Positions 5,582-14,881 of a DNA stretch of 64,000 nucleotides are shown in pieces. The notes under the pieces are model-generated. The model ran no database searches and had not been told where the DNA came from. It saw only the letters and a list, made by a program, of their open reading frames with translations. Position numbers and translations under genes: made by a program. The stretch is from an uncultured Spirochaetota bacterium (lineage in GTDB: Bacteria > Spirochaetota > Brevinematia > Brevinematales > JAOACQ01), in the NCBI GenBank assembly GCA_963783575.1, contig CAWAOD010000009.1:160001-224000 (forward strand), written 5' to 3'. The stretch's first letter is position 1. Each line of letters begins with the position of its first letter.

Positions 5582-6037
5582 TTATACTAATTCTTTTAAT
5601 TGCAGGTAAGTAATTCTTGGGAAAAAACCATATTTACTATAAAATTTAAAAACCGATTCATGCCCCTCTGCAACAGCGACCATGATTTTTGTACAGTTAT
5701 TGGCTTTTAACCAATTTATGCTATTTTCAACCAATTTCCCGCCATAACCGTATTTTCTATATTCCTGATCAATGAATAATGAATCTATCTCGCCAACATT
5801 TTTTTCAATTGTTGAAATACAATAGCCAACCGGAGTATTATTATTAACAATCAACTCAATTCTAATATTACCGCTATCCAGTTCATCAAACTTTTCACAT
5901 CTTTTTTCAAAAGTAAAACTTTTATAGTGCCCCTTAAAAAATTTGGAATCTTTTAAATGAATTTCATTTAATTTTTCCCAAAGAGCTTTTATTTCACCAA
6001 TTTTTATTTTTTCAATAACTTTGAATTCACAATTCAT
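5582..6037 (-). CDS. GNAT family N-acetyltransferase
   Basis: GEIDSLFIDQEYRKYGYGGKL motif A; FYSKYGF. Confidence 0.9.
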   Translation of the reverse strand: MNCEFKVIEKIKIGEIKALWEKLNEIHLKDSKFFKGHYKSFTFEKRCEKFDELDSGNIRIELIVNNNTPVGYCISTIEKNVGEIDSLFIDQEYRKYGYGGKLVENSINWLKANNCTKIMVAVAEGHESVFKFYSKYGFFPRITYLQLKELV

Positions 6038-6218
6038 AAAAAATATCCTTTTTATTTGATCATAATTACCCGGCAATACTTTACAATAAATAAATATAAA
6101 AATCAAATCCTGAAATTAAGAATTAAAGTTGCCGGATTAAATTATTTTATCAACTATTGACAAACATTCTTTTATATGTTACACTATTAGTATAATTAAT
6201 TATATTATAGGTGTAAAT

Positions 6219-6865: not shown

Positions 6866-7680
6866 ATGATTAGAATTACATTGTTAATTATTCTATTTAA
6901 CTTATTCTCGTCATTTACTTTTACACAATCTGTAGAAAAAGGATTTTTCTTATACCAGGGATTGGCCGGATTGGATTATCCAATGGGAATTCAAAGTGAT
7001 ACGGCTGTTTATTACCGTATTCCCACAGGTGAAAGTGAAGAGATGCTTTTTAAGACCGCTCATACGGATATTGGAATTGAAAATTGGCTTACCCCAACGG
7101 ATAATTTTCTGGCCCTATATTGCAAACTTGAGCCCATCGCATTCTTTGATCTTGTGTTCCGTAGCGGTTATGACGGTATTTTTAATTTTACCGGCGTGGG
7201 TTTTCAGCCGGTAAGCGGGCCCGGCGAGCCTTATGATTCGGAATCGGCTGTGAAACTGCCCATGAAAACCGGTCCGGATTATGGGGAATGATTACCCCGG
7301 AATTAAAAATCAAATTCTGGAATATCATTCTCACACATTCGTTTACAATTAACTATTTCAATATGTTTTATCCCGGATATTTTATTGAATTCCATACCGA
7401 TTCAATCCTTCATGGTGAAGATATTAATCTGCAAAACGATACATACGGATTTTACGAATTTAACCGGCAATTACTATTGGGTTTTAATCACTATTATCTC
7501 TATGTACCAAGCACCGGATATGCCTCGCAGAGACTTTCCGCAGCGGCGGTCTTTAAACCCGGGCTGAGTTGTTTTTATGATGCTTTCCTTGCTGCTCTTG
7601 CCGGCAGTTATCTTCAGGATCACAGCTACACCGGCAAGTTTTTCCTGCTTATTCAGGGTGGCTTTACTATAAAGTTATAA
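6866..7680 (+). CDS. Exported (possibly outer-membrane beta-rich) protein, split by a one-base deletion near 7260
   Basis: Signal peptide in ORF 6866-7291; adding one C in CTGCCCATG gives a continuous ...KLPHENRSGLWGMITPELKIKF... into ORF 7288-7680, which ends GGFTIKL. Confidence 0.6.
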
Positions 7681-7699
7681 AGGAGGTGGTATGATAAAA

Positions 7700-7870
7700 A
7701 AGGTTGAAAAATAAAAGAGCCCGCATCAAAATAGATGAGGGCTCTGAATAGGACAAAGATCGAATCAATTTGTGGGGATAAACCCCGTTAGGAGTATGAT
7801 CGAATCCTTGTCCGAACCACCATTTTGAGGATAAACCTCGTATTGGAGTATGGTAATTTTTCAACCGGAT
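7700..7870 (+). ncRNA. Putative IS110 bridge RNA (5' hairpin plus two related internal loops)
   Basis: Closing stem GGTTGAAAAAT/ATTTTTCAACC; hairpin AGAGCCCGCATC/GATGAGGGCTCT; two parallel loops ATC-AATTTGT-GGGG ATAAA CCCC-GTTAGGAGTAT-GAT and ACC-ACCATTTT-GAGG ATAAA CCTC-GTATTGGAGTAT-GGT. Confidence 0.75.
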
Positions 7871-7922
7871 TAATATACCACTAAAAGATTCAGGCCTCCC
7901 AAATAAATTAGGGAGAAAAACG

Positions 7923-8933
7923 ATGGACGCAAAAAAGTGGATCGGAATTGATATCCACAAAAAGCAAATTACCGTTTGCATTATTATAGAAAACGGTAAA
8001 AAATCAATCAAGCAATATGAGAGAAATGAAAAAGAATTAGCGGAATTTGAGAAAGAGATTGACAAAGAAACGATAATCGGGATTGAATCGACAAACTGGA
8101 CATGGGATTTAATCAAACGGTTAAAAGATAAAGTAAAAGATGCGGTTATTTTCAATACTATTGATTTAAAAAGATTAATGGATCGATTTAAAAAAACAGA
8201 CAAGGAAGATGCAGAAAGAATGGCGATTATATTACAAAGATTTGAAAAAGAAGAGCTAAGTACCTGTCAGATAAGAAGCGACGAAGACGCTGAAATAAGA
8301 GGATTATTATCTGTGAGGGAAGAAATGGTTAGCAATAAGAAAAGCTATAAGACAAAGATAATAGCGATGATGGAGTATTGGGGGATTAAAACCGGAGACA
8401 AAATGTTCAACAATTTTGAAAAGAACACAAACTGGGTCAAAGAACAAAACATACCTGAGAGTATAAAGAGAGCCGTAATCCAGATGTATGTTATGTTAGA
8501 AAATCTCAAAGAAGACATTAAGGTACTGGATAAAGAAACAGAAGCCTTAAGCATAAAGAGACCCGGATATAATGAGATTAAAGAATTAACGGGAATAGGC
8601 ACAACAACCGGCGTATACATCATAACGAAGGTAGGCAATATAGACCGCTTTAGTACCTCAAAAAAATTTGTATCATATATGGGATTAGCACCAAGAGTTA
8701 GTGAAAGTGACGGAAAAGGAACAAATGGTCAAATTACACGAAAAGTAGACGGTGCTTTTTTAAGGGTCATAGTACAAGCAGCCTGGGTTCGTGTGAGATA
8801 TGATAAAGAAATGAAATCGTTTTATGAGAATATTCGAACAAGAAGAGGAAAACAAAAAGCGATCATTGCAGTAGCGAGAAAAATTATTGTGGAAGTATAT
8901 TATAAGTTGTTGAATCTGAAATCTGAGGCTTGA
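7923..8933 (+). CDS. IS110 family transposase/bridge recombinase
   Basis: IGIDIHK, GIEST and KTDKEDA (DEDD RuvC-like domain); GIGTTTG HhH; YMGLAPRVSESDG catalytic Ser loop; KAIIAVARK. Confidence 0.96.
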   Translation: MDAKKWIGIDIHKKQITVCIIIENGKKSIKQYERNEKELAEFEKEIDKETIIGIESTNWTWDLIKRLKDKVKDAVIFNTIDLKRLMDRFKKTDKEDAERMAIILQRFEKEELSTCQIRSDEDAEIRGLLSVREEMVSNKKSYKTKIIAMMEYWGIKTGDKMFNNFEKNTNWVKEQNIPESIKRAVIQMYVMLENLKEDIKVLDKETEALSIKRPGYNEIKELTGIGTTTGVYIITKVGNIDRFSTSKKFVSYMGLAPRVSESDGKGTNGQITRKVDGAFLRVIVQAAWVRVRYDKEMKSFYENIRTRRGKQKAIIAVARKIIVEVYYKLLNLKSEA

Positions 8934-8948
8934 ATCTTAAAATAAAAC

Positions 8949-8977
8949 TTGACAAATTACATAGGAGAAATTATGAT
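8949..8977 (+). promoter_or_regulatory. Hybrid sigma70 promoter at the IS right junction
   Basis: TTGACA (8949-8954, IS-encoded) - 17 bp - TATGAT (8972-8977, target-encoded). Confidence 0.65.
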
Positions 8978-10058
8978 GCAAATATTAAAAAATATAATCC
9001 TGATGGGAATTATCTTTGTATTCCCGATTGCCGGTTACAATATAACAAATAATCAAGGAGAGAACAAAATGTACAATTTGAATCCGGAAATGGAGAAAAT
9101 GCTTTTTTACGGCACTCTTGCGCCAAGTTCTCACAATGCTCAAATGTGGAAAGTCCGGATAACAGGGCCTTTGGAAATAGAGGTTTTTCTAGATACAAAC
9201 CGGCTTCTGCCACAGGTTGATCCAGATAATAGAGAAGCATTCATCTCAATCGGCACATTCCTTGAGAATCTCGGCGAAGCCGCATTTTCCCTGGGTTATC
9301 GCGCAAATATCGATATTCAAGAGCATCCGATGGATGAACGTGCTGCTATCATTCAATTCATTAAAGATGATGCGCTTCCTCCTGACAATTCTTATCTTTC
9401 TAATATTTTGTCCCGCCATACAATCCGGACAGCATATTTGACAAATGAATTGACAATTTCCGAAATAAATTATTTTTTGTCTTCAGACCAATATCATGTT
9501 TTTTACTATTCGTTTAGTTCAGATGAGGGAAAGTACCTTTCACAAAACCTGATTAAAGCCAACCGTCAGCAGATGGCCGATGACAATAAAGAGCTTGAAC
9601 TTTCTGAATGGTTCCGTTTTTCACAAAAGGATATTGATCAGAAAAAAGATGGTATGGTACTGGATATTCAGGGTATCGGCGGCTGGATTGCAGGAATATT
9701 CTTCAATAAAGATACCGTTATGTCAAAGATCTTCCGCGAACAGGGTGTTGAAATGGTTAAAAATGCCGTTGGCAATTGCAGCGGGTATTTGGTTGTCACG
9801 GCTGAAGGCACTTCACCGAAAGACTGGATTTCAGCCGGTATGCTTTCCGAAAAGATTTGGCTGATGGCGGCATCGAAAAAGATCGCAATTCAACCCATGA
9901 GCCAATTGCTTGAAGAAATCCCCTGGAAGCTTGAAATTATGCAGAAAATCGGCTTAAATAAACCGATAGCCATGCTCTTCAGGGTTGGTTATATAAAGGT
10001 TTATGGAAAAGGTTTAACCAGACGACGCGATTTGAAGGATTTTATTATTAATCAGTAA
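8973..10058 (+). CDS. Acg-type FMN-dependent nitroreductase family protein (alternative start at 9069)
   Basis: LAPSSHNAQMW, LPQVDPDNRE, RHTIR, QPMSQLLE and FRVGY motifs; SD AGGAG before 8973 and AAGGAG before 9069. Confidence 0.88.
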   Translation: MMQILKNIILMGIIFVFPIAGYNITNNQGENKMYNLNPEMEKMLFYGTLAPSSHNAQMWKVRITGPLEIEVFLDTNRLLPQVDPDNREAFISIGTFLENLGEAAFSLGYRANIDIQEHPMDERAAIIQFIKDDALPPDNSYLSNILSRHTIRTAYLTNELTISEINYFLSSDQYHVFYYSFSSDEGKYLSQNLIKANRQQMADDNKELELSEWFRFSQKDIDQKKDGMVLDIQGIGGWIAGIFFNKDTVMSKIFREQGVEMVKNAVGNCSGYLVVTAEGTSPKDWISAGMLSEKIWLMAASKKIAIQPMSQLLEEIPWKLEIMQKIGLNKPIAMLFRVGYIKVYGKGLTRRRDLKDFIINQ

Positions 10059-11887: not shown

Positions 11888-13903
<2,016 letters not shown>

Positions 13904-14881
13904 ACAGGCGGAAAGGCCATAAAAAATGGTTTACAGGGAATTACAATATCCGGTTAATGGAAAATCTTAATTCAAAAAATGATTATGAATTAGTGATTGT
14001 CCCGGTTAGACATTATTCAATTGAAGATGTTTTGAAACAAATAGTTCCGCTGATTCCAAACACAGGTTATCTATTATTAACTCAAAATTGGAAAGGCAGT
14101 TCCGAAATAGATAAATTTTTACCGGCAGATAAATATATTTTTGGTGATGCTAAAGCCGGTGGCTCTTTCCGGAACAATAAATTAATTGCAACAATTTATG
14201 CGATTGATATTGGCAGTATTGATAACAATGAAAACAATTGTTTAAGAAAAGCATATGATTTGTTTTTATCCGCAGATATAAAGACGACTATACAGGATAA
14301 TATATTACATTATCTTTGGGTTCAATATGCAATTAATGGAGGAGAGTGGCCGGCACTTGTAAAGGAAGGCAGCATAAAAGCGCTATTAAAGAATCCTCAA
14401 CTTGTAAAAGCCTCAATTTTAGCTGTGAGAGAATGTCTTACAGTTGCAAAATCCCGAAAGGTTGATCTAAATAAATATAATGAAACAGATTTTTATTTAA
14501 CTAATTCAATTATTAAACAAGTCATCGTGACAATAGCAATGAAAATCATATTTCGTTACAGCAAATATATTCAAAGAAATTCTGCACATGCTATGGCTGA
14601 TCCCAGGGAAATAAAGACTTTCTATTATGATTTGATTAAGACAGGAGATGATCTTGGAATAAATATGCCGGTTATGAAAAGTTTTAAAGAAGTTATTGAT
14701 AATTTAAAATCAACATAACCTGGTTCTCCCTCATAACAAACTGTCTTCGAATAAAAAATAAAAATTTTATCCGGTAGAAAATGGTATCATCCTTTTTCTG
14801 TCATGAACCAAATTATACCGTCAAAATAATTGTATTGATTTTAGATAATATCAAAAGTTTTATGAACCATAAGGAGATTAT

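Follow-up and report, generated by a model that had tools for sequence, protein, structure and literature searches.

How can an insertion sequence lie within the ribosome-binding site (RBS) of a host gene and leave that gene with a ribosome-binding site? This is the question raised by a locus near the left end of the window, by which we mean the entire stretch of 64,000 nucleotides of a contig from an uncultured Spirochaetota bacterium that was analysed. The left junction reads TAA-AGGAG-GTGGTATGAT (7678-7695, with TAA at 7678-7680 and AGGAG at 7681-7685) and the right junction (8949-8975) reads TTGACA-AATTACAT-AGGAG-AAATT-ATG, with TTGACA at 8949-8954, CAT at 8960-8962, AGGAG at 8963-8967 and ATG at 8973, which bears out the original prediction of an IS110 element with AGGAG on both of its sides. 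Based on the evidence set out below we propose, with a probability of about 0.72, that this is a bridge-RNA element related to IS1533 and ISLin1, the target loop of which would be programmed with the Shine-Dalgarno (SD) sequence itself, in a niche that spares the RBS. The site and the element comprise the following features:

7288..7680, plus strand: upstream host ORF, 130 aa, of no family; its TAA abuts the target SD
7681..7683, plus strand: AGG of the host SD, the left target half, orphaned before the element (core position as deduced from the empty repeat units of ISLin1)
7684..8965, plus strand: the insertion sequence by the IS1111 7+3 convention, 1282 bp, core AG counted left; ends identical in 6/6 copies
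7684..7690, plus strand: left terminal extension of 7 bp: AG (core) followed by GTGGT (right donor half)
7690..7695, plus strand: -10 box TATGAT of the circle-junction promoter predicted here; the ATG within it forms the left sub-terminal repeat stub
7896..7915, plus strand: hairpin pairing the transposase's own SD (GGGAG, 7911-7915) with CTCCC, in both the MFE and the centroid structure
7923..8933, plus strand: intact DEDD recombinase, 336 aa, PF01548 plus PF02371
8949..8954, plus strand: -35 box TTGACA of the predicted circle promoter
8960..8965, plus strand: right end CAT-AGG, sub-terminal repeat stub plus the 3-bp extension completing the SD; same end in ISLin1, L007, L009 and L071
8963..8967, plus strand: regenerated SD AGGAG (AGG from the element, AG the core)
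8973..10058, plus strand: downstream host gene, Acg-family FMN nitroreductase, 361 aa

The insertion site likely lies inside an operon consisting of tetR, two hypothetical ORFs and then the nitroreductase gene, whose start at 8973 is backed by a 72%-identical ortholog with the same N-terminus. A pattern scan found no terminator-like site within the element. Upstream, near-consensus divergent promoters occupy 6157-6217, between a GNAT-like ORF (5582-6106, minus strand) and tetR, and are the likely source of read-through into the element. The ORFs at 6866-7291 (141 aa, with a hydrophobic N-terminus) and 7288-7680 overlap and are possibly one frameshifted gene; neither has a family match.

Collecting the other copies in the genome (G000), a check proposed with the original prediction, gave six copies in all, about 99% identical, with identical ends and unrelated flanks and all in AGGAG; a contig scan with the single protein as query had returned one locus. 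The element boundaries are fixed because the five other copies have identical ends and different flanks. An ATG follows AGGAG at 5, 5, 6, 7, 6 and 5 nt, and the ORFs opened behind the copies span 361, 178, 209, 228, 474 and 151 aa, all in the element's direction. The six are independent insertions at AGG|AG, co-directional and 5-7 nt before a start codon, and the targeting of SDs, the co-direction and the regeneration of the SD, which had been claimed from the window copy, extend to 6/6 copies, with the relatives in agreement. An element placed on the sense strand at an RBS in every case would always lie within a transcript. Two copies are intact, two carry a stop and two have a common 11-bp deletion, one of the latter also holding a 2.5-kb nested insert; the presence of one deletion at two sites suggests that a broken copy moved in trans. 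The further claim that donor and target both read AGGAG-N4-TATGAT fails on the target side beyond the window copy (1/6).

We then compared these sites with the background of AGGAG in the genome, where 638 of 6534 occurrences (9.8%) precede a start of an ORF of at least 100 aa at 5-7 nt, giving a p of about 9e-7 for 6/6. A crude gene call splits the same occurrences into 4655 coding, 923 SD-like and 956 other non-coding sites. A comparison that takes selection into account is fairer: against non-coding sites, 42% of which have an ATG at 5-7 nt, 6/6 has p 0.005, and against AT-rich non-coding sites (55%) p 0.03; in the looser window of 3-9 nt, ATG follows 70-74% of AT-rich non-coding sites and p rises to 0.12-0.17. 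On these values, this genome by itself cannot separate active sensing of starts from a short guide combined with selection. Other insertion sequences are seldom kept within ORFs (0/12, 2/13 and 3/10 in the three families not confined to one repeat), a rough control in that the handling of target duplications failed for some families and three families target repeats. A T immediately before the ATG was considered as a family-wide determinant and rejected: it is present in 6/6 and 10/10 junctions of two genomes, but its background is 61% and it occurs in 1/5 for type 2 of genome G153.

The recombinase matches PF01548 (E 1.5e-17), PF02371 (E 9e-19) and NF033542 (192 bits, cut-off 140), and residues D10, E55, D93, D96 and S262 are invariant across 28 homologs; judging from its sequence, the element belongs to the IS110/IS1111 superfamily of bridge recombinases. 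Within the superfamily it appears to be IS1111-like and related to ISLin1 and IS1533, and ISLin1 presumably belongs with IS1533. The latter, from Leptospira, is called an IS1111 member in PMC11187229. According to the same source, the ends of IS1111 elements extend 7 bp on the left and 3 bp on the right, and the guide for the top strand lies 5' of that for the bottom strand. Both extensions are present here (AG-GTGGT-ATG and CAT-AGG), and the guide order recurs in the donor loop of this element, in both loops of ISLin1 and in the target loop of L009. The transposase (336 aa, against 330-350 aa in IS1111) reads GLAP----SDG at the GL-P----S(t)G motif. The near-perfect sub-terminal inverted repeats of 11-13 bp that are an IS1111 trait are reduced to 4/13 in this element, with 9-10 contiguous matches in G285 and G153 type 2 and 9/10 in ISLin1. 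The non-coding DNA amounts to 237 nt upstream and about 30 nt downstream of the transposase gene, the opposite of the usual IS1111 arrangement, in which the long non-coding region follows the gene, with exceptions noted (PMC11187229). We do not file the element as a typical IS1111 member because its terminal repeat has decayed and its RNA lies upstream. Protein identity is 27% to ISLin1 and about 19-23% to other named IS110-like elements.

The apparent 5-bp target duplication was rejected as such: the target supplies one AGG and the element the other, with AG as the core. Through its right end, CATAGG, which completes AGGAG, the element rebuilds the SD. The same end is found in ISLin1, which does not target SDs, and the SD-like right end thus appears to be older than SD targeting. 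The circle-junction promoter TTGACA-17-TATGAT that the original prediction had reconstructed was reproduced in silico for the predicted circle, and its 17-bp spacing is kept in 6 of the 7 SD-targeting element types read. Contigs from three sequencing runs of other samples showed no circle joint, a result with no bearing on whether circles form. The enclosing helix of the RNA described below starts at 7702, seven bases past the -10 box that the circle would complete, and the predicted RNA start lies near 7702. In the window copy, TTGACA 8949-8954 is also 17 bp from a TATGAT at 8972-8977 across the right junction; an outward hybrid promoter was rejected as a general feature, being perfect in 1/6 copies and having a -10 box that overlaps the start codon. 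Separately, a second strong SD and ATG lie within the nitroreductase gene (9056-9072), past the hydrophobic N-terminus, with a Met at that place also in the ortholog P0037; with the hybrid promoter (8949-8977), this second start could yield a leaderless-peptide form of the nitroreductase. At the other end, the ATG behind the orphaned host SD opens a 7-codon ORF (7691-7714; 5-14 codons in relatives, by eye) that overlaps the 5' strand of the enclosing helix and may reflect chance in AT-rich DNA.

What might direct the element to AGGAG became apparent from its left end, for which we predict a bridge RNA of the kind that the original prediction had missed, with a guide reading AGGAG and an IS1111-type architecture:

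7702..7866, plus strand: predicted bridge RNA (fold z = -6.0; 0/200 shuffles as stable)
7790..7794, plus strand: 3' target guide AGGAG, identical to the SD sequence, with predicted pairing to the template strand; invariant in 7/7 aligned RNAs
7819..7823, plus strand: putative 5' donor guide ACCAU, which complements RTGGT of the left end, with one G-U pair in the window copy
7842..7848, plus strand: 3' donor guide AUUGGAG, 6/7 to donor ATAGGAG; 7/7 in relatives

The RNA would consist of an enclosing helix (7702-7712/7856-7866), a 5' hairpin (7716-7745), a target loop (7751-7813) and a donor loop (7814-7855), a layout of helix, 5' hairpin and two stems with internal loops like that described in PMC11208160. 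The same fold is predicted in relatives, with a consensus fold of seven of them; covariation is seen in 3 of 35 pairs in these 7 close sequences, and Rfam returned no match for the element or for the miniature element (MITE) described below. As modelled, the two-loop RNA has AGGAG in both 3' guides, each loop carrying a GGAG-ending guide 3' of its inner hairpin. The pairing over the transposase SD also has counterparts in relatives (by eye).

The register of the guides was taken from sister elements with other targets, ISLin1 and L009. ISLin1 is inserted in a tandem repeat, the empty units of which show a single AG; its 5' target guide matches the right flank at 8/8 and its 3' guide the left flank at 7/7 (by eye), and L009 is alike. 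In this register the 3' target guide matches the target at 5/5 in all copies, and guide positions -1 to -3 co-vary with the target flanks across 8 element types (guides permuted among types, p 0.005, and per type 0.002, both overstated since the types are kin). Matches at -1/-2 number 19/22 in G285, 5/6 in G153 type 2, 4/6 in G153 type 1 and 2/2 in each of three singletons, against 3/14 in the window's own type and 0/2 in G216; since the -1/-2 bases of the window's type do not match its targets, only 5 nt are explained there. For the 5' target guide (7762-7773 in the window), a pooled swap test gave no signal (p 0.63) and none of 7 registers in the window beats the SD background (p 0.06-0.52), the sole exception being one G216 site (7/9, p 0.02). 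The 5' donor guide matches at 4/5 plus a G-U.

A second IS110 family in this genome (C13, C16 and C5; e.g. C16:220240-221670) has 3 copies, a CG core, GC-rich targets, related ends and a longer left-end RNA, and one of its copies lies about 1 kb from an SD-targeting copy. In this family the 5' donor guide AACAU faces a left end ATGTT and the 3' donor guide AUAGACG an end CATAGACG, the core, the donor and both donor guides having changed together.

The left-end pattern was detected in 6 of 43 genomes of the class, all six in the window's family, and two records of close homologs carry the label Brevinematales or Brevinematia. The 30 pattern hits in relatives include two ordinary genes (L103, L125), one contig-end fragment (L127) and one MITE (L106), and no transposase match was found among 34 viral-contig pattern hits and 15 pattern loci from other families of the phylum. 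In a tree bearing on the monophyly of SD targeting, the window-type clade of 7 rows is recovered at 100/100, with G285, the ISLin1 group and the second IS110 family on an open fork. The G285 type, with a 27%-identical enzyme and 12 left ends, has ATG at 5-7 nt in 10/10 intact right junctions; 8 of these junction ORFs are open for at least 70 codons and two measure 38 and 32 aa. For G153, all 20 hits with the end signatures of its two types were examined (25 of 44 pattern hits), and the 9 usable right junctions comprise five gene starts (one apparently ATA), one start with a 37-aa ORF, two junctions within IS110 transposase genes (L263/L185 and L264/L177) and one without a start, so that 3/9 lack a real start. 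A real start is not required, because 2 of the 9 fall within IS110 transposase genes; one G153 insertion is in its own type's transposase gene, at a site matching its 3' guide at 6/7. G132, G216, L022, L023 and a contig of run X2 each contribute one junction, in every case with an ATG 3-6 nt downstream.

Together, the genome and its relatives have ATG 3-9 nt downstream in 27/30 right junctions (p 1e-4 against non-coding AGGAG sites and 0.03 against AT-rich non-coding sites, at 74%, with the G000 background used for all). The count leaves out L124, in which another element interrupts the junction; L122 and L024, which lack a right end; L117, whose contig stops at the junction; the truncated element of L107; and the degenerate L181. 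In L107 of G153, at about 1500-1640, the left end extends as far as the AGGAG inside the target loop, where it joins the spacer and ATG of a 462-aa host gene, as would result from a deletion between the internal AGGAG and the right one. In L026 (1356-1375) and L027 (1631-1650), the right-end motif of a distant IS110 runs straight into a left-end-like sequence containing TATAAT; these arrangements may be assembled circle junctions or tandem copies.

The inference of an empty site with a single AGGAG is supported by orthologs of the targets of other copies. From the A-run through AGGAG to the second codon, the reconstructed empty site of L021 is identical to its G000 ortholog; that of L017 matches its ortholog with three extra bases, and in G285 the ortholog of the C11a target carries a single AGGAG with the spacing unchanged. 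Several further orthologs were too diverged to compare. For the window site itself, no nitroreductase ortholog was found at E <= 1e-40 in 40 relatives.

A 115-bp MITE with the ends of this element is present in G043, in the assembly of which no transposase domain was found; it gave 30 BLAST matches, of which 29 loci were read (L199-L208 and L243-L261). Among 25 copies with a recognisable right end, 23 continue into AGGAG in register and the other two after a one-base shift, and 24 have ATG at 3-10 nt. In the 15 copies scored at both ends AGGAG is intact on the left in 3 and on the right in 13, with 25 and 7 mismatches, respectively, out of 75 (p 5e-4). Body identity is 86%, and the alignment of two left ends is poor. 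The pattern is consistent with selection for the rebuilt SD while the orphaned copy decays; alternatively, insertion may have occurred at non-SD left flanks. One gene downstream of a MITE copy is, from its N-terminus, presumably leuC.

If the target loop is indeed programmed with the SD, host transcription entering the integrated element would yield the bridge RNA, and the hairpin over the transposase SD would damp translation of the transposase. The ends would join as a circle, CAT-AGG-AG-GTGGT-ATG, forming a sigma-70 promoter that starts RNA near 7702; the target loop would pair mainly via its 3' guide, over 5 nt in this element and as many as 7-9 in relatives, with the 5' guide adding little, and exchange at the AG core would set the element's CAT-AGG before AG-spacer-ATG, rebuilding the RBS. 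AT-rich flanks and selection against hits within genes would leave mostly true RBS sites. Under this proposal an ancestral SD-like right end would have been followed by retargeting of the guide to AGGAG, opening a niche in which the RBS is spared and each copy comes to lie on a transcribed strand. The host gene can probably stay readable past the 1.3-kb insert, while the element would ride on host transcription. The suggestion of the original prediction that such sites are a safe harbour has indirect support: the right-hand SDs of the MITEs are kept and the left-hand ones are not. However, the SD-like right end predates SD targeting, as ISLin1 indicates, and much of the pattern may come from selection against copies that hit genes.

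The alternative that fares best, which we nonetheless consider unlikely, shares most of these mechanics and differs on adaptation: there would be no adapted niche, recombination would occur at donor-like AGGAG sites by means of a target loop copied from the donor loop, and both the placement at SDs and their regeneration would be by-products screened by host selection. The two loops do hold a 19-nt direct repeat at 84% and are alike within each type, the donor end is already SD-like in ISLin1, the 6/6 of this genome is unremarkable against the looser AT-rich null, and complexes with the donor loop only can be productive (PMC13626964). However, bases -1 to -3 of the target guide differ from those of the donor guide and track the targets, and the target loop retains AGGAG even between types with transposases of only 27% identity, while the neighbouring guide bases change.

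A short guide, AT-rich flanks and selection may account for the ATG bias, but against guide and selection alone an excess of ATG remains (in G000 and G285, 16/16 have it at 5-7 nt where 55% would be expected, p 7e-5, besides the p of 0.03 for the 27/30 junctions, both on the G000 background). This excess is what recommends a second alternative, rather unlikely in our judgement, in which whole translation starts would be actively read, the SD guide being joined by a conserved AUCA(U) and U-rich stretch of the 5' target guide, by the protein or by an initiating polymerase or ribosome, with the ATG at flexible spacing. CAU occupies the AUCA(U) place in 4 of 7 aligned target loops, one G216 target matches its 5' guide as noted above, the IS900 motif also contains SD and start codon (PMC8141618) and MITE right ends are followed by ATG although their left flanks are often not AGGAG; against this, the 5' guide tests are null both in the window and pooled, spacers vary from 3 to 9 nt, a third of the G153 junctions lack a real start and the G153 type-2 loop has no CAU. 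A bolder version, which we regard as speculative and doubtful, would have the lineage reading translation starts as such (the 3' guide recognising the SD, and a 5' guide tolerant of bulges, or else coupling to initiation complexes, the start codon), using read-through at every site for its expression, and its miniature derivatives domesticated as RBSs or 5' leaders of dozens of host genes. Finally, a target chosen through contacts of the protein with DNA and duplicated over 5 bp, in the manner of DDE elements, with a merely incidental likeness of the RNA, would explain AGGAG on both flanks of every copy but is disfavoured and highly improbable: the enzyme is DEDD/IS110, ISLin1 has the same right end beside another left flank and shows a single AG in its empty units, and the guides co-vary with targets and donors.

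Returning to the preferred reading of an SD-programmed guide, its closest precedent in target choice is IS900, whose targeting of RBSs was reportedly described in 1997. The statement in the original prediction that IS900-type elements insert near RBSs agrees with the literature: IS900 and IS901, IS110-group elements of the Mycobacterium avium complex, insert at translation-initiation signals and rarely disrupt genes (PMC8141618; PMC2942039 citing Doran 1997 and Inglis 2003). The IS900 motif CATGNNNNNNTCTCCTT is the reverse complement of AAGGAGA-N6-CATG (PMC8141618), and the host RBS serves hed, an ORF encoded opposite the transposase (PMC8141618, PMC2942039). Both elements thus insert at an SD and start codon, but IS900 is counter-directional, with a gene of 1,200 bp and an enzyme of about 400 aa, whereas the present element is co-directional in 6/6 copies (longest antisense ORF, 178 aa), encodes a 336-aa enzyme, has IS1111-type ends and guide order and rebuilds the RBS with its own end; an origin independent of IS900 is likely. 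ISLin1, the best named protein match (27%, E 1e-21), shares the right end CATAGG|AG, the left-end bridge RNA, the guide order and the register, but its target is a tandem repeat that both guides match in full (8 + 7 nt), in place of SDs matched by one short guide. IS621 shares the DEDD + Ser enzyme (PDB matches, E 5e-14) and, according to PMC11208160, a left-end RNA with a 5' hairpin and two loops, a 2-nt core and a circle-junction sigma-70 promoter, as predicted here; in contrast to IS621, the guide order here is reversed, the target specificity looks one-sided over 5-7 nt and the targets are RBSs. ISPpu10, ISPa11 and other IS110/IS1111 elements that target REPs or structures likewise use safe intergenic sites, and for ISPpu10 a layer of specificity beyond RNA-DNA pairing is reported; their targets are repeated stem-loops, in contrast to the 5-nt functional signal at each gene's start here.

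Our literature searches found no description of this clade or of an SD-matching bridge guide, though the target-logo supplements of PMC11208160, PMC11187229 and a 2026 preprint could hold one; such guides go unmentioned in the available parts of 10.64898/2026.10.21.760802, 10.1101/2025.10.25.684509, 10.64898/2026.03.19.712850, PMC13604230 and PMC7823733. RBS targeting as such is known from IS900, and what appears to be new is the SD-encoding guide, the one-sided targeting, the opposite orientation and the RBSs supplied by MITEs. The guide would offer an RNA-level explanation for RBS targeting and a second, opposite-orientation route to the niche of IS900. It also suggests that a natural bridge RNA can work with a one-sided target guide of 5-7 nt, which bears on the off-target rules of bridge recombinases. 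Excision of IS621 requires read-through (PMC13626964), and co-directional insertion at RBSs would supply read-through of this kind. The MITE family further suggests that many genes of a single genome can acquire their RBS from mobile ends.

This genome also carries other mobile elements. A 1.69-kb insertion sequence with about 30 copies and 3-bp duplications (e.g. C11:255310-257020) sits, in every copy, in the loop of a conserved GC-rich palindromic repeat (REP-like), and a 1.35-kb family targets another GC-rich repeat. The window also encodes, at 12075-13436 on the minus strand, a group II intron reverse transcriptase/maturase (RVT_1 + GIIM), within an element of about 2.0 kb (repeat about 11890-13910) that has 3 copies in the genome.
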